Below are positions 2,983 to 60,751 of a DNA stretch of 64,000 nt, in pieces. How positions within the stretch are numbered: the first letter of the stretch is position 1; every line of letters starts with the position of its first letter. The notes beneath the pieces were generated by a model, which was given only the letters and a program-made list of their open reading frames with translations, did not search any database and was not told the DNA's origin. The translations under genes and the position numbers were made by a program. Location: contig DISH01000003.1 in assembly GCA_002421665.1 (NCBI GenBank), positions 39,291 to 103,290 on the forward strand, written 5' to 3'. Source of the stretch: Candidatus Omnitrophica bacterium UBA6215 (GTDB lineage Bacteria; Omnitrophota; Gorgyraeia; Pluralincolimonadales; Pluralincolimonadaceae).

Positions 2983-5088
2983 ATGGTCGAGCACCGTTCG
3001 GGTATTGAGCGCAGGCGATACATAAGGCTGAATACGGTATTTCCCGTCGAGCTCGAGGTCATCAGCCTCGACGACAAAGAAATATACTGCGAGTTCCAGC
3101 AGGCCTTTACCCGTGATGTAAGCGAGGGAGGCATGTGCCTTGAGGTGAACAACCTCAAGGACGAACTTGCCGAAAAGCTTAACAAAAAATCCGCAAAACT
3201 TCGCCTCCAGATAAATATGCCGTTTTCTGTCAGGCCGATAGATGCCATCGCGGAAGCGGCCTGGATAAAGAAGATCAGGGAACACCGTCCCAACAAATAT
3301 TTTATAGGCGTTTATTATGAGAAGATATCGGAGAAGGAAAGGAAGAGCATAGTAAACCACGCGCGTTTCCTTATGCTCAGGCCGTTCTTTGTCGCGGCGG
3401 CGATATTGCTGCTTGCGGTCGCGGTGGCGGTTACCAGGGTCGAGCTGCTGAAAAAGGAAGCTCTCCGGAAAGAGACAGAAAGAAAGCTTGCTCTTATTGA
3501 ATCCGAAAGGGTAAAGCTTGCCCAGGCGATGGAAGAGTTACGCCTCAATCGTACCGAGCTCGAAGCCAAGATAAGCTCATTTGAGCAGGAAAGGTCGGAC
3601 CTGGAAAAGAAGCTCGAGGCGGCAAAGACCGAGGCGCTCGCGAAACCCGAGGAGATAGCCCGGCTTGAAGAAGCCTTGGCGAAAGCGTCTGAGAGAACGG
3701 ACGAGCTTAATGCCGAGCTCGCCAAGGTTGTCGATTCCAAGAAGAACCTCGAGAGCCAGCTAAGGGTCCTCGAGGAGATAAAAGCTTCCAAGCCGGTAAA
3801 AGTTGTCCTTGCTGCCGGAGGGGTCGTGGTGGGAAAGGTCGTTCTGGAGACCTCGGATTCTGTCAGGGTAGAGGTCCCGACGGGGGTAATAACCCTTAAG
3901 AGGGACCTTATATCCTCCATGTCTACCCCGAGCGAAGAAGAGATAGCGGAATTGGCCAGGGAAAGGCTCAAACTTGAGCTCAGGGCCAAGGAAGTGGAAA
4001 AGAAGAGAGAGTTGGAGCGTAAGGCGGCCGAAGAAAGGGAGAAGACCGAAAAGGTAATATCAAAGAAGACCCCCGGAGAGCCCGAGCAATTGATATCCAG
4101 GACGATCCCGGAGAGGGGCGTAGCGATAAAGGATAACAGGATATATGCCGACGGTTCGTTATTCTTTATAAAAGGGATAGCTTACGGCGTAAGCGCGCCC
4201 GGCCTGCCGCCCGGGGTTGACGGCTGTTTCTCTAAGATCCCTTTGTCGGTTTTCGAAAACGACTTCAGGATGATGAAAGCCGCCGGGATCAATACAATAA
4301 GGACTTACGAACCGTTCCCGGACGCCTTGCTGGACCTTGCCGAGAAGTATGACCTCAAGATAATAGAACAGGTAGTCTATCCGTCCGCCTACACCGATTA
4401 CTCCTCCGATATCGAGCTTAAAGCGATGAAGAGGATGGCTACGGAGGCCGTAAGGAAACACAGGAACAGGAAGTGCATACTTATGTGGTCGATCTGGAAC
4501 GATGCCCCCTTCTGTTATGATGAGCCCGGCAACCCCGTTCCCCGTTACGGTTTCGAGAAAGTGAATAATTTCATGAGAGAGATATACCTTGCCGTTAAAT
4601 CGGTGGATAAGAGCCGTCCGGTCACGGCTGCCAACATCCTGAAGGTAAAAGGGTATGACCTGGGGTTCGATTTCCTGGATGTCATAGGCTGTAACGCTTA
4701 TATAGGCGGGCACGGGTTCAATTGGCGCGGCAGGGATGAAGCGGTGAGGGCCGTGAAGGAGATGAAGGAGATCTCAAAGAAGTATAAGAAGCCGATAATC
4801 ATAACCGAGACCGGATACAGTACTTTCGTAAAGAAAGATTCACAGGATAAGGCCCTGAAGACGCAGATCGAAAGCGCGGAAGACGACCTTGCCGGGATAG
4901 TCATCTTCGAATGGACAGACGAATGGTGGAAAGGCGGGAACCCGTCTGTCCAGGACAAGCACATAGAGGAGTACTGGGGCATCCTTACCTGGGACAGGAA
5001 GCCAAAACCGGGTTTCGAGATCGTTTCAAAGCTATTCAACTCTATACCCACCGATTCTCTGGGTTATAGGCCTTCCATAAAAAATTAA
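2983..5088 (+). CDS. PilZ-domain (c-di-GMP receptor) / transmembrane / long coiled-coil / C-terminal TIM-barrel glycoside-hydrolase-like fusion protein.
   Basis: PilZ motifs 'RRRYIR' (RxxxR) and 'DVSEGG' (DxSxxG) lie near the N-terminus. A hydrophobic helix 'FFVAAAILLLAVAVAV' follows. About 200 aa rich in E/K/L/A then form a coiled coil. The C-terminal domain carries 'WSIWND' and 'IIITETGYS' motifs typical of clan GH-A hydrolases. Confidence 0.6.
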   Translation: MVEHRSGIERRRYIRLNTVFPVELEVISLDDKEIYCEFQQAFTRDVSEGGMCLEVNNLKDELAEKLNKKSAKLRLQINMPFSVRPIDAIAEAAWIKKIREHRPNKYFIGVYYEKISEKERKSIVNHARFLMLRPFFVAAAILLLAVAVAVTRVELLKKEALRKETERKLALIESERVKLAQAMEELRLNRTELEAKISSFEQERSDLEKKLEAAKTEALAKPEEIARLEEALAKASERTDELNAELAKVVDSKKNLESQLRVLEEIKASKPVKVVLAAGGVVVGKVVLETSDSVRVEVPTGVITLKRDLISSMSTPSEEEIAELARERLKLELRAKEVEKKRELERKAAEEREKTEKVISKKTPGEPEQLISRTIPERGVAIKDNRIYADGSLFFIKGIAYGVSAPGLPPGVDGCFSKIPLSVFENDFRMMKAAGINTIRTYEPFPDALLDLAEKYDLKIIEQVVYPSAYTDYSSDIELKAMKRMATEAVRKHRNRKCILMWSIWNDAPFCYDEPGNPVPRYGFEKVNNFMREIYLAVKSVDKSRPVTAANILKVKGYDLGFDFLDVIGCNAYIGGHGFNWRGRDEAVRAVKEMKEISKKYKKPIIITETGYSTFVKKDSQDKALKTQIESAEDDLAGIVIFEWTDEWWKGGNPSVQDKHIEEYWGILTWDRKPKPGFEIVSKLFNSIPTDSLGYRPSIKN

Positions 5089-53506: not shown

Positions 53507-55189
53507 ATGTACCGATACAAAATACCGGCGGTATTGTTCATACTTATCGTCATAACCTTTGTTTCCTTATACCCCTGCCTTTGTAACGGGTTCACGCTTT
53601 GGGATGACAACCGCTTCATTGCCGAGAACAAGCTGGTCCGCGACATCTCTCCCCGGAATATCAAGACCATGTTCACTTCCGCTGTCTGCGAGAACTATGC
53701 CCCGCTTGCCATGCTTTCATACGCCGTTGAATACCGTATCGCTGGCACGGATGATCCGTTTATCTACCACGCCGATAACTTGATCCTGCACTTGGCGAAT
53801 TGCCTGCTCGTCTTCTGGTTCATATACCTTATCAGCGGGAGCGCCGCGGTCTCTTTCATTACCGCGTTGTTTTTCGGCATCCACCCGATGCATGTCGAGT
53901 CGGTAGCATGGATATCAGAGAGGAGGGATGTCCTGTATTCGTTCTTCTTCCTGCTGTCGCTGATATTTTATGTTCGTTACCTGAAGGGTGCGAGGAAAAC
54001 GGCCGATTACGCTGCTTCGCTCGGGATGTTCGTATTATCCATGCTCTCGAAGACGATGGCCGTTACGATGCCGGCGCTGCTGTTTTTAACGGATTATTTT
54101 TTGCGCAGGAAATTCGACAGGAAAGCCGTATTCGATAAGGCGCCTTTTATTGCCGCGGCACTATTGTTAGGCATTTTCGGCTATTTTGCTCAGCAGGGTT
54201 CCGGCAGGGTATTACACGTCGACCACGGGCTGTTTAACAATGCGGCATTCGCTGTTTACGGTCTTGTTTTTTACCTGAAAAAACTTGTTTTTCCGGTCGG
54301 GTTGTCGGCCTTTTATCCCTATCCTGCGGATGTCCAGTCCGCGGTCAGGTGGATACTCTTATATTCGTTGCCGGTATTTGCGGCGGTGTGCGCCGCCGTA
54401 GCCGTATCGCTTAGGTATACAAGGAAAGCGGCCTTCGGCTTTCTCTTCTTTATCGCGGTTCTATTGCCGGTAATAAAGATTATCCCTCTCGGACGGGCGG
54501 TTGCCGCCGACAGGTATGTCTATATCGCTTATATAGGGTTGTTTTACATTATAGCGGAAGCGGTCTGCCGAACTTGCCGCTCGAAAAATACAGCGGCAAA
54601 GGCGGTTGCTATCATATTGACCGCAGCGTTTGCCTGCACGCTGTGCGCTCTTTCATCGCAGAGATGCCGCGTATGGAAGGACAACATCTCGCTTTGGACT
54701 GATGCCATAAAAAATTACCCGAGTGTTGAGGCATATATCGGCCGCGGGGTCGCTTACTCGAATGCCGGGAAAGTGCGGGAGGCTATTGAAGAATACAACA
54801 AGGCGGAAGAGATGGATCCCCGGTTCGCGGATATATTTACTAACAGGGGTAATGCATACCTGGCTGCCGGTCAGCAGGAAAAGGCTGCCTCGGATTATTC
54901 AAGGGCCATAGAACTGGACCCCGGCGCATATAAGCCTTATTATAACCGGGGCGTCGTATATATAAAGACGGGGCAGTTTGATAAAGCGATTGCGGACTTT
55001 ACCGAAGCGATAAAACTTAACCCTGATTGCGCCCAAGCATACGGGAACCGCGGCGCGTGTCTTGGTAATACGGGCAGGGAAGAAGAGGCGTTGCGTGATT
55101 TCAGGACTGCCCTCAAGATAGACCCGGAGTATCTTTCCGCCGGAGATAACATGGAACGCCTGCTTAAAAATCGCACCTGCGGGCCTTGA
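53507..55189 (+). CDS. Polytopic membrane protein with C-terminal TPR repeats (PMT/TMTC-like putative glycosyltransferase architecture).
   Basis: About 10 N-terminal TM helices. At least 4 C-terminal TPR units follow ('AYIGRGVAYSNAGKVREAIEEYNKAEEMDP...'). Confidence 0.55.
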   Translation: MYRYKIPAVLFILIVITFVSLYPCLCNGFTLWDDNRFIAENKLVRDISPRNIKTMFTSAVCENYAPLAMLSYAVEYRIAGTDDPFIYHADNLILHLANCLLVFWFIYLISGSAAVSFITALFFGIHPMHVESVAWISERRDVLYSFFFLLSLIFYVRYLKGARKTADYAASLGMFVLSMLSKTMAVTMPALLFLTDYFLRRKFDRKAVFDKAPFIAAALLLGIFGYFAQQGSGRVLHVDHGLFNNAAFAVYGLVFYLKKLVFPVGLSAFYPYPADVQSAVRWILLYSLPVFAAVCAAVAVSLRYTRKAAFGFLFFIAVLLPVIKIIPLGRAVAADRYVYIAYIGLFYIIAEAVCRTCRSKNTAAKAVAIILTAAFACTLCALSSQRCRVWKDNISLWTDAIKNYPSVEAYIGRGVAYSNAGKVREAIEEYNKAEEMDPRFADIFTNRGNAYLAAGQQEKAASDYSRAIELDPGAYKPYYNRGVVYIKTGQFDKAIADFTEAIKLNPDCAQAYGNRGACLGNTGREEEALRDFRTALKIDPEYLSAGDNMERLLKNRTCGP

Positions 55190-55284
55190 AATTCCGTCGA
55201 TATATGGCATACTTTAATTGACCGAAAGGGGCAGTCCGGCCGGCGGTCGGACTTGACGCTGGGTCCGAAAATCCCAAAGCGGGC

Positions 55285-55385
55285 CCACCCCCATCAGGGC
55301 CGAAAGGGCGTGACGCAAAACCCCGGGCCTAAACCGAGGCCATTCCAGGTGGCACGGCAGGGCGGCGAGGTTACCGAAACCGGAG
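55285..55385 (+). ncRNA. Candidate cyclic-di-GMP-I (GEMM) riboswitch aptamer.
   Basis: GC-rich non-coding leader with GEMM-like blocks: 'CAGGGCC-GAAA-GGGCGUGACGCAAAACC' (P2 with GNRA loop), 'CCGGGCCUAAACC', and '...GGCGGCGAGGUUACCGA'. These match the Vc2-type consensus (GACGCAAAGCC / GGCCUAAACC / GGGGUUACCGA). Confidence 0.55.
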
Positions 55386-55461
55386 AAAAGGTCAAAGGCG
55401 TAGGTTGCCTCCCTTTGTCGGTCGATGCAGGATTTCCGGTTGCAGTAGAAGCAGGAGGTTC

Positions 55462-55500
55462 AAAATGGCAAGCGCCATTGCGCTTGCCATTTTGTTTTCC
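55462..55500 (+). terminator. Intrinsic terminator, the likely riboswitch expression platform, 20 nt upstream of the patatin gene start.
   Basis: Perfect 14-bp hairpin AAAATGGCAAGCGC-catt-GCGCTTGCCATTTT, followed by GTTTTCC. Confidence 0.65.
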
Positions 55501-55519
55501 AGCCTATATAATAAAAGAG

Positions 55520-57574
55520 ATGAGCCCTGCCAATATTAATAATTTAGATAAAGCTGCGGTCATAAAGAAAATACCGCTGTTCGCCGACCTGCCGCAGGCC
55601 GCGCAAAAACTCATTGAGGAGCGCTGCTACCTGGTTGAGTACAGGAGAGACCACCTTCTCTACCGCGAGGGTACCCCCGCGGATTCTTTTTATTGCATGG
55701 TATCGGGCCGGGCAAAGGTGTTTGTCAATACCCCATCGGGAGAGGAGAGGGCCCTTATATATCTGCATAGGGGTGATTATGTCGGGATAGTCTCCCTGCT
55801 TACCAACGAACCCCATTCGGCCTCCGTAAGGATAATGAACGATTCGCTGGTCCTGCGCATTGACAAGAAAAATTTTGATCTATTGCTAAGCGACATTCCG
55901 CAGCTTGCCGTCAGACTCAGCGAATCGCTTTCCAGGCGTCTGAAGAAGAAAGAATCCAAGACTAAGGCGGTCTTCGAATCGACGATAATATCGGTTTACG
56001 GCATGGCTAAGAAAGCCGGCAGGACTATGTATTCTGCGAACCTGGCCATCGCCCTGGCCTACGAAACGCGCAAGAAGGTCATTTTGATAGACATGAGCCC
56101 CTCCGGAGAAGAATGCGCTTCCACGCTTCATATGGACGGGAAACCGCAGTGTATCGTCCTTGGTTCCGGCATCCTCAGCTACGATGATGTAAGGTCCAAA
56201 GTCGTAAAGTATGAGCCGGGAGGGATACACCTATTGAGCCTTTCCTGCGCTTCGTCGGCGGACATAGAGCCGTCCGAAGTGATCTCCCTGCTTAGCTCGA
56301 TAGCGTCCGAATTCAATTACATAGTCGTTGATATGCCGTCGGAGATGGATAAACCCGTTTATGCCGTGCTTATCCAATCCGACCTTATACACGTGGTGAC
56401 GGATTCCGGCGAGCATAACCTGAAGGCGACAGGGAGGATCATCGACGAATTGAAAAAGACGGTCAAGGATCCGGATAAGGTCATAAGGGCCGTAATAAAC
56501 GAATTCGTGATGACCAAGAGTTTCGAAGAGGAGGTAAAGCTGTTGGGCCATAAGGCATATGCGACCTTGCCGGACCTCGGTTTCCTTGCCGGGATGATGG
56601 CGGCAGGCCTGCCTCCGGTGCTTGCAGTGCCCGAATGCCTCTATTCGAGGGCGGTCAGGAGGATCGCCAGGGAGATAGGAAGGATACTCGTCGGCCTTTC
56701 GCTTGGTTCAGGGGCGGCGCTCGGGCTTGTCCATATCGGCGTCATCAAGGTGCTGGAAGAGGAGAAGATCCCGGTAGATTTCGTGGCAGGCAGTTCCATA
56801 GGGGCGGTCATCGGGGCGTTCTGGACTTCAGGGATGGACGCTTTAGAGATAGAAAAGGTCGCTTTGAGTTTCAAGAAAAAGAAGACGCTGTTTTCACTGG
56901 CCGATTTTTCCCTCATGCCGCTGCACGGCTTCCTGAACGGCAACGGCATCAAGCGGTTATTCAGGGAATACCTGGGCAACAAGACCTTCCATGATACGCG
57001 CATACCGTTCAAGATAGTCGCCAACACCCTGCGTTCGCGGGAGAACATCGTAATTGACCAGGGCAGCCTTGTCGACGCCTTGCGCGCGACCTGCTCGATC
57101 CCTGCGCTAATTAAACCTGTAAGGTACGGCGACGATTTCTTTATCGACGGAGGGACGCTGGACCCGGTCCCGATAGATGTCCTGGTGAAGGGCGGCGCAA
57201 GCAAGATAATAGCCGTCAACTGCCTCCCGAGCCAGGAAGAGATGCGCAAGATATTCGCCGAGTTCGAGGATAGGCGTCTCAGGGAAGAGGCCAGGCTCGC
57301 TAAGGGCTCCGTCTTCGCGCGGATAAAATATAATTTCAATAACTGGGCCCGCCGGACCTTTGCACCCAACGTTTTCGACGTCATGATGAACACCTCGCTG
57401 GCCATGCAGTATGTCCTGGCTGAGGCGTCGTCCCGTAACGCGGATTGCGTTATCCATCCGATACTGTCGAACGCGGTCTGGTTCGAGCTCTACAAAGCCG
57501 AAGAGCTCATAAAACGGGGAGAGGAAGAGACGCGGAAGATGCTTCCCCAGATAAAAGCCCTGATAGAAGAATAA
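55520..57574 (+). CDS. Cyclic-nucleotide-binding domain / degenerate MinD-ParA-like domain / patatin-like phospholipase fusion protein.
   Basis: N-terminal CAP-family cNMP-binding domain. The middle domain aligns to the MinD/CpaE P-loop region but has a deviant Walker A ('GMAKKAGRT'). The C-terminal patatin domain has a GxSxG 'GSSIGA' motif and a 'FFIDGG' DGG motif. Confidence 0.7.
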   Translation: MSPANINNLDKAAVIKKIPLFADLPQAAQKLIEERCYLVEYRRDHLLYREGTPADSFYCMVSGRAKVFVNTPSGEERALIYLHRGDYVGIVSLLTNEPHSASVRIMNDSLVLRIDKKNFDLLLSDIPQLAVRLSESLSRRLKKKESKTKAVFESTIISVYGMAKKAGRTMYSANLAIALAYETRKKVILIDMSPSGEECASTLHMDGKPQCIVLGSGILSYDDVRSKVVKYEPGGIHLLSLSCASSADIEPSEVISLLSSIASEFNYIVVDMPSEMDKPVYAVLIQSDLIHVVTDSGEHNLKATGRIIDELKKTVKDPDKVIRAVINEFVMTKSFEEEVKLLGHKAYATLPDLGFLAGMMAAGLPPVLAVPECLYSRAVRRIAREIGRILVGLSLGSGAALGLVHIGVIKVLEEEKIPVDFVAGSSIGAVIGAFWTSGMDALEIEKVALSFKKKKTLFSLADFSLMPLHGFLNGNGIKRLFREYLGNKTFHDTRIPFKIVANTLRSRENIVIDQGSLVDALRATCSIPALIKPVRYGDDFFIDGGTLDPVPIDVLVKGGASKIIAVNCLPSQEEMRKIFAEFEDRRLREEARLAKGSVFARIKYNFNNWARRTFAPNVFDVMMNTSLAMQYVLAEASSRNADCVIHPILSNAVWFELYKAEELIKRGEEETRKMLPQIKALIEE

Positions 57575-57580
57575 GCGTAT

Positions 57581-57610
57581 TTGACAGCCCTCCGGCATGG
57601 GGGCTATAAT
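57581..57610 (+). promoter_or_regulatory. Consensus sigma70 promoter (TTGACA, 18-nt spacer, TATAAT) for the fixC-like gene.
   Basis: Perfect -35 at 57581-57586 and perfect -10 at 57605-57610. The AGGAGA RBS is at 57622. Confidence 0.5.
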
Positions 57611-57633
57611 CAATGTAAACAGGAGACCACATA

Positions 57634-58944
57634 ATGGCAAGCGGTGAGAAATTCGATTGTATAGTCGTAGGAGCGGGCCCTGCCGGGACGACATGCGCTT
57701 ATACCCTCGCGAAAGCGGGATTGAGCGTAGTGCTTCTCGAGCGCGGGGAGAAGCCCGGGTCCAAGAACGTAATGGGAGGGATACTTTATTCCACGATACT
57801 TAATAAGGTGATACCCAACTTTTGGGAAGAGGCGCCCGTCGAGAGGAGGATAGTGCAGAAGAAGTTCTCGGTGCTTTCCGACGACTCCGAGCTCCAGCTT
57901 GCCATGAGGTTCGAGGATTTCAACAAGCCCCCCTATAACAATACTTTTTCGGTCCTGCGCGGGAAATTCGACGCATGGTATGCCTCGAAAGCCGAGGAAG
58001 CCGGGGTCATGATACTCAACGAGGCGGTTGTCGATAAGGTTATAGTCGAGAACGGCAAGGCTGTCGGCGTGAAGACCCGCCTTGAGGACGGGGACCTTTT
58101 CGCGGACACGATAGTGATAGCCGAAGGCGTCACTTCCCTGCTGGCGCAGGGCCTGGGGCTCAGGGAAAAACATATACCCGAGCACATGGTCACCTGCTGC
58201 AAGGAAGTCATCGAACTGCCGAAGGAGACGATAGAGCAAAGGTTCAACCTTGATGGCGATGAGGGCGCTTCGCTGGAGTATTTCGGGGGTTCTGTTAAGG
58301 GCCTCGTAGGATCAGCATTCATATATACTAACAAGGATACCGTATCTATAGGCGTCGGAGTATCCACGAACGATCTAAAGAACAACAAGCTTACCCCGAA
58401 TGACATAATAGAATCTTTCAAGGAGCACCCGTCGATAAAGCGCTATATAAAGGGAGGGAAGCTTCTTGAGTATTCCGCGCACATGATACCGGAATTCGGC
58501 TATGACCACCTCCCTAAATTGACCATGGACGGGCTTATCATAGCCGGCGACGCAGCAGGTTTCGTTAACATGAATCCCCTGTATCATGAAGGGTCTAACC
58601 TCGCGATGGCCTCGGGCCTTGCCGCGGCCGAAACGATAATAGAAGCAAGGAAGAACAATGATTTCTCGGAGAAAGGCCTTGCCGGATACCGCAAGCGCCT
58701 CGAAAGCTCTTTCGTCCTTAAGGACCTGAAGAGATATAAAGGTATCTCTAACTTCGCGTTGAAACATCCCGAATTTTTCAAGGAATACCCGGAACTGATC
58801 ATAGAGCTGGCGCAGGATTTCTTCACCGTTTCAGAGACGCCCAAAGGCCAGTCCAGGATGAACGTCATAAAGAAGGGCCTGAAGAGGGTCAACCTGCTCA
58901 AGCTCGCAATAGGGATGAATCGCGCGCGCAAAGTGATGTTCTAA
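57634..58944 (+). CDS. fixC: FixC-type FAD-dependent oxidoreductase (electron-transfer flavoprotein:quinone oxidoreductase family).
   Basis: 'EKFDCIVVGAGPAGTTCAYTLAKAGLSVVLLERGEKPGSKNVMGGILY' is nearly co-linear with rhizobial FixC. Length 436 aa. Confidence 0.8.
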   Translation: MASGEKFDCIVVGAGPAGTTCAYTLAKAGLSVVLLERGEKPGSKNVMGGILYSTILNKVIPNFWEEAPVERRIVQKKFSVLSDDSELQLAMRFEDFNKPPYNNTFSVLRGKFDAWYASKAEEAGVMILNEAVVDKVIVENGKAVGVKTRLEDGDLFADTIVIAEGVTSLLAQGLGLREKHIPEHMVTCCKEVIELPKETIEQRFNLDGDEGASLEYFGGSVKGLVGSAFIYTNKDTVSIGVGVSTNDLKNNKLTPNDIIESFKEHPSIKRYIKGGKLLEYSAHMIPEFGYDHLPKLTMDGLIIAGDAAGFVNMNPLYHEGSNLAMASGLAAAETIIEARKNNDFSEKGLAGYRKRLESSFVLKDLKRYKGISNFALKHPEFFKEYPELIIELAQDFFTVSETPKGQSRMNVIKKGLKRVNLLKLAIGMNRARKVMF

Positions 58945-58954
58945 GAGAGTCTCG

Positions 58955-60751
58955 ATGCGTGAAGACACTATTCCTTTGATGTTTTTCGCGAGGGCGGACA
59001 GGTATGGCAGCAGGTGCGCCCTCCGGTATAAACGCGATGGCAGATACCGCGATATAACCTGGTCGGAATTCGAGGACAAGGTAAAAGACCTCGCTTTCGG
59101 GCTTATCGCCTTGGGACTTAAACCCGGCGAAAAAGTCGCCATCCTTTCCGAGAACAGGCCGGAGTGGGCTTTCTCCGACCTGGCCGTCCTTTCATCAGGC
59201 TGTGTCGATGTCCCCATATACCCTACCGATGTCCCGAACCAGATGGCGCATATAATCTCGGATTCGGATTCAGCCATGGCTATAGTTTCGACCGCCGAAC
59301 AACTCGAAAAAGTGCTCTCCGTAAAAAAGGACATCCCTTCGCTCAGGAAAATAATAATGATGGACCCTCCGGAGAGATTGCCGGGCGCAGATATGATCTC
59401 TTTGAAAGAGGTCATGAAGACCGGGGCGGCGAAAGCTTCCGAAGTCCGCGTGGAATTCGAATCACGCCTCAGGTCGGCCGGCAAGGACGACCTGGCCTCT
59501 ATAATATATACCTCGGGCACAACAGGCCCGGCAAAAGGCGTCTGCCTTACGCACGGAAATTTCCTTTCCAACTGCAGGGTGTCGGTAGACGTTCTTCCTT
59601 TTGACGAGAAAGACGTCTGCCTTTCTTTCCTGCCGCTATCGCATGTGTTCGAAAGGATGGCCAGCTATTATTTTACGCTGCTCATCGGCGGGACGATCGC
59701 TTATGCCGGGAGCATGGAGTCGGTGGCCTCGGACCTTAAAGAGATCAGGCCCACTTACATGTGTGCTCCTCCGAGGTTCTACGAGAAACTTTACGCGGGA
59801 ATAATGGAAAAGGCCTCCGTGAAAAAACCGGGCGAAAGAAAAGCCCTCGAAAAGGCGTTCGCGACGGCCAAAAAATACTCCGACGCTATTTTCAATAAGC
59901 TGGATATAAGCCCGGGCCTTTGGCTCGAGTACAATATCGCCAGGATATGCGTATTCTCCAAGATAAAGGAGGCGGTCGGCGGAAAGATCAAATTCTTCAT
60001 CTCAGGCGGCGCTCCGCTCTCAAGGGAGCTTGCCGAGTTTTTCTTTTCGGTCGGGATATTTATATTCGAGGGCTACGGCCTTACCGAGACATCCCCGGTA
60101 GTGACGGTTAATACTTTCAAGGCCCTCAGGTTCGGCTCCGTAGGAAAACCCCTCAAGGACGTGGAGGTAAGGATGTCCTCCGACGGAGAAATATTGGTAA
60201 AAGGCCCTACGGTAATGAAGAGGTACTATAATAACGAAAAGGCCACAGCCGAGGCAATAGACGGCGAGGGCTGGTTCCATACCGGGGACGTGGGGCATTT
60301 CGACGATGACGGGTTCCTTTATATAACCGACCGCAAGAAAGACATAATAATAACCGCCGGCGGGAAGAATATAGCGCCGCTCAATATAGAGAACCTCATA
60401 AAAAGCGATTCGTACATACAGGAGATAGTGATCCATGGGGACAGGAGGCCTTACCTGACAGCGATAGTAGTCCCGGATTTTAACGCGTTGAAAGGGCTCG
60501 CGATAAGACTTGGGATACCTTACCTTAAGCCGGAGGAACTGGCAGCCCATCCGCGTGTCGAGGAGTTCATAAAGGGCAGGATAGAAGAAAAACAGAAGGC
60601 CCTGCCCGGTTATGAGAGGATAAAGAGATTCAGGCTGCTGGACAGGCCCTTGAAGATAGAGGAGGGCGAGATGACCCCGTCCCTCAAGGTAAAGCGCAAG
60701 GTTGTCGCGGAGAAATATAAGGAAGTTTTTGACGAGTTGTACAGGAGCTGA
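58955..60751 (+). CDS. Long-chain fatty acid--CoA ligase (AMP-binding, FadD-like).
   Basis: 'YTSGTTGPAKGV', 'GYGLTETS' and 'TGDVGHFDDDGFLYITDRKKD' are present. Confidence 0.8.
   Translation: MREDTIPLMFFARADRYGSRCALRYKRDGRYRDITWSEFEDKVKDLAFGLIALGLKPGEKVAILSENRPEWAFSDLAVLSSGCVDVPIYPTDVPNQMAHIISDSDSAMAIVSTAEQLEKVLSVKKDIPSLRKIIMMDPPERLPGADMISLKEVMKTGAAKASEVRVEFESRLRSAGKDDLASIIYTSGTTGPAKGVCLTHGNFLSNCRVSVDVLPFDEKDVCLSFLPLSHVFERMASYYFTLLIGGTIAYAGSMESVASDLKEIRPTYMCAPPRFYEKLYAGIMEKASVKKPGERKALEKAFATAKKYSDAIFNKLDISPGLWLEYNIARICVFSKIKEAVGGKIKFFISGGAPLSRELAEFFFSVGIFIFEGYGLTETSPVVTVNTFKALRFGSVGKPLKDVEVRMSSDGEILVKGPTVMKRYYNNEKATAEAIDGEGWFHTGDVGHFDDDGFLYITDRKKDIIITAGGKNIAPLNIENLIKSDSYIQEIVIHGDRRPYLTAIVVPDFNALKGLAIRLGIPYLKPEELAAHPRVEEFIKGRIEEKQKALPGYERIKRFRLLDRPLKIEEGEMTPSLKVKRKVVAEKYKEVFDELYRS

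Follow-up and report, generated by a model that had tools for sequence, protein, structure and literature searches.

The region upstream of a patatin-like phospholipase gene of Candidatus Omnitrophica bacterium UBA6215 carries a structured RNA with the core of a cyclic di-GMP-I (c-di-GMP-I, or GEMM-I) riboswitch aptamer. The window analyzed here is the whole stretch of 64,000 nucleotides (nt) from contig DISH01000003.1, and the RNA lies in it at 55220-55498 on the plus strand. It is marked by conservation among relatives, covariation, homology to GEMM-I, the binding-site nucleotides, the complementarity of two distant strands that form a helix we call P0, and promoter and terminator motifs, all of which are seen in the sequences. 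The reading that we favor, with about an even chance of being right, is that this stretch makes up an RNA of about 280 nt with its own promoter and terminator and a c-di-GMP-I-type aptamer, which would have an indirect effect on the patatin operon.

The aptamer core and its homologues

The RNA lies in the intergenic region 55190-55519, between a TPR-containing gene (53507-55189, plus strand) and the patatin gene, whose product has cNMP_binding, AAA_31 (ParA-like), and Patatin domains; an initial annotation had already recognized it as a patatin with a cNMP-binding domain. That annotation had also called the region GC-rich and listed blocks of the GEMM core in it, and both descriptions were accurate. 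The G+C content is 0.58 to 0.63 over 55175-55474, compared with about 0.47 to 0.55 in the flanks, and GACGCAAAACC (55312-55322), GGGCCTAAACC (55325-55335), and GAGGTTACCGA (55367-55377) are all located in the intergenic region. A GNRA-capped P2 had been described as well. The GAAA loop exists (55302-55305, within GCC-GAAA-GGC at 55299-55308), but it does not close a simple helix; it caps the 2-bp top of a helix that is split by a four-way junction. The elements of the locus are as follows, with L numbers denoting relative loci and RF numbers denoting Rfam families.

55186-55213, plus strand: predicted promoter of the RNA, TTGAAA, 16 nt, CATACT, with TG upstream (extended -10), a consensus match
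55220-55232, plus strand: 5′-terminal strand GACCGA-AAGG-G-GC, from the alignments, the RF03167 alignment of L012, and duplex energies
55233-55253, plus strand: hairpin X, 9 bp with loop GGC, in the place of the canonical GEMM-I AAA internal-loop strand
55256-55311, plus strand: P1b as a four-way junction, from pair counts
55312-55318, plus strand: core strand GAC-GC-AA, with the G45-C46 equivalents at 55315-16 and the A47 equivalent at 55317, in invariant columns
55319-55372, plus strand: P2 with a receptor-like CCUAAAC...CAGGG motif and an extended distal stem, its helices covarying
55373-55378, plus strand: ACCGAA, of which CCGAA is invariant, with the C92 equivalent at 55374 by the Rfam alignments
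55379-55410, plus strand: nearly invariant 32-nt block ACCGGAGAAAAGGUCAAAGGCGUAGGUUGCCU, with hairpin GGC-GUAGGUU-GCC, outside GEMM-I
55411-55423, plus strand: P0 3′ strand CCCUUUG-UCGGUC, complementary to 55220-55231
55462-55498, plus strand: intrinsic terminator with a 14-bp stem (arms 55462-55475 and 55480-55493), loop CAUU, then GUUUU
55484-55512, plus strand: predicted sigma-70-type patatin promoter, TTGCCA, 17 nt, TATAAT, matching 11/12 consensus positions
55520-57574, plus strand: gene for the cNMP-binding, ParA-like, patatin-like phospholipase, first gene of a fatty-acid-oxidation cluster

At gathering thresholds, Rfam gave no match in the window as a whole. When 55100-55620 was scanned permissively, the top match was c-di-GMP-I (RF01051) at 55288-55378 on the plus strand, over the full model (positions 1 to 87), with 28.2 bits against a gathering score of 35 and an E value of 0.0015 for the 521 nt searched. 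By our own proportional scaling to 64 kb, this E value becomes about 0.2; the window copy alone is therefore not significant, and the significance rests on its homologues. Its score against RF03167 is below 28.2 bits, as cmscan shows the best clan member only. The other sub-threshold matches, to microRNA and small-RNA families, were discarded as a mere reflection of the palindromic terminator.

Orthologues of the patatin protein are numerous among Omnitrophota metagenome-assembled genomes. We collected relative loci through these orthologues and through one metagenome scan with the most conserved stretch of the RNA, the 32-nt block, as pattern. Using nhmmer, we found the same RNA in the window, L001, L020, L005/L006/L021, L018, L024, L019, L008, L002, L012, L007, L023, L017, and L022. 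The family comprises 12 distinct core sequences, or Omnitrophota lineages, with a core length of 208 nt and patatin proteins 59 to 94% identical to that of the window. In an Rfam search of these relatives, L002 matched the full RF01051 model on the plus strand with 29.1 bits, L008 scored 33.1 bits, and L017 scored 41.1 bits against RF01051, over the gathering score of 35. L012 matched RF03167 (c-di-GMP-I-GGC) with 50.6 bits and a 46-nt insertion inside P1b, at the same spot where we had placed it by hand. Matches over the RF03167 gathering score of 59 were obtained for L013 (65.5 bits), L028 (66.0 bits), and L027 (61.4 bits). These lie at the same place, directly 5′ of a patatin gene whose protein is only 40 to 44% identical to that of the window, and their P1b is uninterrupted, with 6 bp and GAAA. 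Where the RF03167 consensus has GACGCGAA, these RNAs have GACGCAAA, which means that the standard c-di-GMP-I core is kept. The ligand-contacting nucleotides, which we take to be G20, A47, and C92 in Vc2 structure numbering, correspond in the Rfam alignments to G55230, A55317, and C55374, and their columns are invariant in 12 of the 12 sequences.

The low score of the window copy is explained by three hairpins inserted in the core; a pair of these makes P1b a four-way junction. The lower stem of P1b, ACGC:GCGU, pairs 55256-59 with 55308-11; it is followed by hairpin A (55260-55287), hairpin B (55288-55299), and an upper stem CC:GG with the GAAA cap (55300-55307). The 3′ strand of P1b is canonical (GAAA-RGGCGK-GAC-RC-AAA-ACC, 6 nt). 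The 5′ strand is split, with its lower MCGC about 45 nt upstream and parted from the upper CY by hairpins A and B with zero linker nucleotides. The third insertion, hairpin X, is found in the window clade, the L005 clade, and L008, while L012 has AAA, L007 has AAAG, and L017 has AU instead; compensatory changes in its stem can be read from the window and L005 sequences. The 5′-terminal strand (55220-55232) supplies the P1/junction nucleotides, the G20 equivalent at 55230, and the G21-C22 equivalents at 55231-55232. GAAA is invariant and stands 6 nt from GAC, as in the consensus, and CCUAAA...CAGGG/CAAGG is conserved at the sequence level, docking of the loop across the four-way junction being a candidate interaction. 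The distal stem of P2 reads AACCCCG:CGAGGUU in the window, AACUUCG:CGAAGUU in L024, and CAG:CUG in L008 and L012, and 3/3 distal pairs covary.

MAFFT and RNAalifold recovered part of the fold only, with hairpins A and B misaligned. Therefore, we built a hand alignment of the 12 sequences, with the variable loops replaced by N, and examined 45 pairs against 500 shuffles and slid controls. Standard pairs fill 96.1% of the cells, compared with 85.7% in the shuffles (0/500 reach the observed value) and 26 to 43% in the slid controls. Pairs changed on both sides number 19 of the 45, compared with 10.3 in the shuffles, again with 0/500 reaching it, and 1 to 4 in the slid controls. The lower stem of P1b has AU in six sequences and CG in six, and the GAAA-closing pair is CG in 10 and UA in 2. 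In hairpin A 7/8 pairs are changed on both sides, in hairpin B three, and in P2 six. The C22-G45 equivalent is CG in nine sequences, UA in one, and a mismatch in two. The core helices (the G21-C46 and C22-G45 pairs, P1b, and P2) are thus supported by covariation, and on this check of the homologous leaders, which the initial annotation had proposed, the signal is strong.

The homologues' scores, the covariation, and the linkage to patatin together identify the window RNA as a diverged, expanded member of the c-di-GMP-I clan, CL00126. The GEMM aptamer first proposed is consequently borne out as a clan core on the plus strand. Its Rfam match, the other check that had been proposed, fails in the window copy, at 28.2 bits instead of 35, and succeeds in the relatives, with clean above-threshold RF03167 matches in L013, L027, and L028.

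Helix P0, the terminators, and the patatin promoter

Transcription is predicted to start at about 55220, where the structured domain begins. The motif CTTGWAWTTT...TRTGGCATACT is kept in all members of the RNA family, and in the corresponding position the distant clade carries ...TGTGGCATGGT. The first 12 to 14 nt of the RNA, with the G20 and G21 equivalents, serve also as the 5′ strand of P0. In the window this duplex (GACCGAAAGGGG:CCCUUUGUCGGUC) has an energy of -17.9 kcal/mol, compared with -10.2 ± 2.5 for shuffles. Energies of -16 to -23 kcal/mol are found in 14/15 lineages (L013 has -14.5), compared with about -8 ± 2.5 for shuffles, and the P0 sequences differ between clades, e.g., GCCGAUAAAGG:CCUUUAUCGGC in L028. 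Because P0 uses up G20 and G21, it excludes the ligand-binding fold, and by its complementarity it is the kind of competing helix that is expected of a riboswitch.

The 32-nt block is more conserved than the aptamer across the 12 lineages and is absent from the distant clade. Pairing between the block and the 5′ end of the patatin mRNA was considered and rejected, with energies within about two standard deviations of the shuffles and nothing conserved; one outlier in the pairing search was the start of the L012 nitroreductase gene. On the minus strand, the reverse complement of the block (55394-55412) was flagged as a terminator-like hairpin with a T-run, and the same was seen in L005, L007, and L012. 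There is no convergent minus-strand gene to use this signal.

The perfect 14-bp hairpin with a U-tract in the initial annotation is present, the end of its U-run lying about 21 nt 5′ of ATG 55520. The fold of 55420-55510 has a z score of -4.6, and 0/200 shuffles fold as well. A consensus terminator scan missed this hairpin and called the homologous one in L005; pairing of an A-run in the stem with part of the U-run may account for the miss. Most relatives have an additional upstream terminator, GCCAGCGGCU...AGCCGCUGGC-U6. The L005 clade has two hairpin and U-tract terminators in series, the second of which is the hairpin retained in the window. The upstream-terminator loop (about 60 nt; L005 2370-2440 and homologous regions) contains a conserved AAGCGGCAGUAUCGCAGUAAGCAGC and three GCAG repeats, and the window clade has lost most of this stretch. 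CsrA-like GGA motifs in the terminator loop were not conserved and were set aside. At 55449-55467 on the plus strand, AGGAGG is followed 6 nt on by an ATG that opens a 24-codon frame through the terminator hairpin; the frame is not conserved in other clades and is probably no gene.

The patatin gene starts at ATG 55520, not 55521. Its predicted promoter recurs in the relatives as TTGCCA, TTGCTA, TTGACT, or TTGCCT, 17 nt, and TATAAT, with 10 to 11 of 12 matches in varying surroundings. The distance from TATAAT to the ATG is exactly 7 nt in the window, L005, L018, L024, L019, L007, and L017, and the 7-nt stretch itself is variable; in the distant clade, this place is taken by TGnTATCAT. A usable Shine-Dalgarno sequence is missing from the gene, although many other genes in the window have clear ones. 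A conserved promoter 7 nt from the ATG combined with the absence of a Shine-Dalgarno sequence is the signature of a leaderless mRNA, and the patatin gene probably has its own leaderless transcript. As a general signature, TATAAT-N7-ATG proved uninformative: it has three matches in the window, and the other two are not gene starts. A 94%-identical protein (P0001) is publicly called at 773 amino acids (aa), including an 89-aa extension from a TTG, and this start is almost certainly mis-called.

Proposed output of the RNA

From the two promoters and the terminator follows the anatomy of the locus: a promoter, a switchable aptamer RNA, a strong terminator, a second promoter, and a leaderless gene. 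From it we infer the ligand, which way the switch works, where the transcripts begin and end, and the output. In the favored mechanism, the aptamer has a GEMM-I core with hairpin X in place of the AAA strand and hairpins A and B added in the 5′ strand of P1b. Binding of c-di-GMP during transcription would lock the aptamer and block P0, and P0 would form when the ligand is missing. Termination would free a separate RNA of about 280 nt, in which the ligand state alters the exposure of the invariant 32-nt block and of the 5′ end. Most transcription of the patatin gene would start at its own downstream leaderless promoter, and the effect on its operon could come from residual read-through, from interference at the downstream promoter, or from the released RNA. 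A free-standing c-di-GMP-sensing small RNA, in which the toggle between aptamer and P0 exposes or hides the block or the 5′ end to act on a conserved partner, is a tentative proposal. Candidate partners are a protein, the ribosome, RNA polymerase, or, by interference, the adjacent leaderless promoter.

Several points weigh against the favored reading. The promoter and terminator calls are consensus matches only, and the window copy stays under its Rfam gathering score (28.2 < 35 bits). The alignment behind the higher L017 score takes the loop of hairpin A as the GGCAAAC motif, a register that we judge to be wrong. The structural alignment was made by hand and leans towards the structure; the stems are nonetheless unambiguous. 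The P0 core GACCGA:UCGGUC and the hairpin of the block are invariant within the family, so that only the P0 extension and the comparison between clades are informative. The search for pairing with the 5′ ends of the patatin or nitroreductase mRNA gave no partner for the invariant block. Finally, wherever the contig includes the junction, L022 excepted, the RNA adjoins the patatin gene or its operon, and it stays 5′ of patatin despite genes inserted between era and the RNA (window, L019, and L027), a constancy of position that is predicted by a cis-acting riboswitch.

Such a classical cis-acting c-di-GMP riboswitch, in which the ligand would decide the fate of the terminator at 55462-55498 and hence read-through from about 55220 into patatin, is possible but, in our view, doubtful. 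Aptamers of the c-di-GMP-I class normally act in cis. In almost all lineages, the RNA directly precedes the patatin gene or operon on the same strand, a position held in two clades with patatin proteins only about 43% identical; a terminator lies 3′ of the aptamer, and a ligand-competing helix such as P0 is a hallmark of an expression platform. However, the terminator begins 84 nt past the aptamer ACCGAA, beyond the invariant block and the switch helix. We found no antiterminator or other pairing coupling the aptamer or P0 to the terminator in seven lineages, the distant clade being examined by eye. P0 itself does not involve the terminator. No pairing that competes with the terminator stems was found in either clade, and the terminators persist in minimum-energy folds of the 3′ halves regardless of upstream pairing or a free P0 3′ strand. 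One candidate antiterminator, CCGCU of P1b with AGCGG of the terminator arm, was rejected: it has 4 to 5 bp only, neither the window clade nor the L005 clade has it, and the terminator loop holds another AGCGGC through which it would be bypassed. The terminators are strong, with two in series in the L005 clade. A conserved promoter with leaderless spacing stands past the terminator, the AUG on a read-through transcript would have no Shine-Dalgarno sequence, and an insertion in L022 parts the RNA from the gene. The attenuation layout of the initial annotation survives, then, as an intrinsic terminator 3′ of the aptamer. The classic switch is not supported, given the lack of a competing pairing in our search and the intervening conserved promoter. 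Two-tier second-messenger control of membrane lipid hydrolysis, also put forward in the initial annotation, is a conjecture.

A real GEMM-I-clan aptamer with another ligand, e.g., another cyclic dinucleotide, is unlikely. The best Rfam model of L012, L013, L027, and L028 is RF03167, an orphan variant, and not RF01051, and the surroundings of the pocket are remodeled, with hairpin X for the AAA strand and AGG or GAG, not AAA, at junction positions 7 to 9. In contrast, the G20, A47, and C92 equivalents are canonical in every member, and the RNAs keep GACGCAAA where RF03167 has GACGCGAA. A change of position 20 to A, which is typical of cGAMP-sensing variants, is absent, and a PilZ-domain protein is encoded in the window. 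The designation as a riboswitch is supported, and c-di-GMP is its presumed ligand.

Chance resemblance, with an upstream-operon terminator and a patatin promoter but no functional RNA, would fit the sub-threshold match of the window copy and its whole-window E value of about 0.2 by our scaling, yet it is highly improbable and already contradicted by a 208-nt core kept in 12 lineages with many compensatory changes, by the dedicated promoter, and by relatives above threshold. An N-terminal coding extension of patatin from TTG 55253, suggested by an open frame at 55253-57574 and by the 773-aa call of P0001, can be dismissed with near certainty and is likewise already contradicted: the orthologues have 676 to 698 aa, the window and L005 clades differ by a 1-nt indel within the stretch that would be the extension, the substitutions are compensatory for RNA stems, and the cNMP-binding domain begins right after ATG 55520.

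Gene neighborhood and comparison with known systems

The usual gene order is PepMA/TPR, era, the RNA, patatin, a fixC-like gene, and an acyl-CoA ligase gene. A TPR gene is interposed between era and the RNA in the window, L018, L019, and L024, and in L012 a nitroreductase gene stands between the RNA and the patatin gene. The location first described, directly upstream of the cNMP-binding patatin gene, is kept across Omnitrophota, and the association of the aptamer RNA with this gene is evidently old. In L022/L015 (Omnitrophica WOR_2 RIFCSPLOWO2_02_FULL_50_19), an insertion of about 7 kb reaches from just past the RNA terminator to just before the patatin promoter. It carries (L022 4480-8736, L015 1-2493) a 380-aa open reading frame (ORF) without assignment, an SNF2/ResIII helicase gene, a D12 methyltransferase gene, and a TPR gene, and it looks like a mobile defense-type island; the 99.7%-identical strain L017 does not have it. 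L026 has a gap between Era and patatin with no GEMM match, and in L014 and L025, where the RNA is absent, other genes abut the patatin gene.

Around the patatin gene (55520-60751; L012, L013, and L025-L028), genes for FixC/ETF-QO-like proteins, acyl-CoA ligase, 3-hydroxyacyl-CoA dehydrogenase, enoyl-CoA hydratase, thiolase, and acyl-CoA dehydrogenase consistently stand before or after it, which suggests that the patatin lipase feeds β-oxidation. The TPR gene at 53507-55189 shares 78% protein identity with its counterpart in L020 (7747-9429), while the flanking Era, patatin, and FixC proteins share 99 to 100%, which points to local replacement or a hypervariable gene. Three independent assemblies (L009, L010, and L011) end within the RNA or within about 150 nt upstream of the patatin gene; this could reflect strain variation at this spot or a repeat. 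A further feature concerns c-di-GMP elsewhere in the window.

2983-5088, plus strand: ORF of 701 aa, with an N-terminal PilZ domain fused to a glycosyl-hydrolase family 2 (GH2-like) TIM barrel

The PilZ domain, also reported in the initial annotation, was confirmed at 25.8 bits (cutoff, 22.5), and a possible role for the protein is that of a glycosidase under c-di-GMP control. Neither GGDEF nor EAL domains were found among the 30 other large ORFs of the window that were scanned.

Curated riboswitch models miss members with large helix insertions, and since the 28-bit match here belongs to an aptamer with good support, c-di-GMP riboswitches in candidate phyla are probably undercounted. The four-way junction found in nature within the GEMM-I tetraloop arm informs on what the fold tolerates. 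The RNA is consistently linked to a cNMP-binding patatin lipase that heads a β-oxidation cluster, which suggests c-di-GMP control of lipid breakdown in Omnitrophota, a phylum that is uncultured and in part predatory or symbiotic. Should the RNA turn out to be transcribed separately and to carry an invariant effector block, it would rank as a rare example of a small RNA that senses a cyclic dinucleotide, and if it is free-standing, it would tie c-di-GMP to lipid catabolism in this phylum.

With RF01051, e.g., Vc2 of Vibrio cholerae, the RNA shares the strands of the three-way core (G-GC...GAC-GC-AAA-ACC...GGUU-ACCGA) with the G20, A47, and C92 equivalents, the 6-nt P1b 3′ strand preceded by GAAA, the CCUAAAC/CAGGG receptor-like motif in P2, the A bulge and RG bulge in P2 of several members, and the position directly 5′ of and on the same strand as the downstream gene. 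Unlike RF01051, it has the four-way junction in P1b, hairpin X for the AAA strand, a longer P2, the invariant 32-nt 3′ block, and a promoter between terminator and gene, and no coupling of terminator and antiterminator was found in its family. With RF03167, of the same clan CL00126, it shares the 5′ motif CCGAxAAGGGC-AAAC and a short CG:CG P1; unlike RF03167, it has A, not G, after GACGC and adds hairpins X, A, and B and the 3′ block.

Small RNAs that contain or derive from riboswitches include the B12-riboswitch RNAs EutX/Rli55 and the SAM-riboswitch transcripts SreA/SreB. The anatomy, and only the anatomy, is alike: an aptamer in a discrete terminated transcript, where the ligand state would alter the action of the rest of the RNA. 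Unlike those RNAs, ours has no identified trans partner, protein, or mRNA target. Among titles and abstracts joining c-di-GMP, riboswitch, and patatin, none described a c-di-GMP riboswitch beside a patatin-like gene, and the nearest system was CapV of V. cholerae, described as a cGAMP-activated patatin-like phospholipase (PMC6042076). Both systems would tie a cyclic-dinucleotide signal to a patatin-like lipase. In CapV, as described there, the nucleotide binds the protein directly, whereas in the window the link would be an RNA sensor beside the gene, and the protein has a cyclic-mononucleotide-binding domain. Relative to the canonical c-di-GMP-I family, the four-way junction in P1b, hairpin X, the 3′ block, P0 as a long-range competitor, and the two-promoter layout appear to be new.

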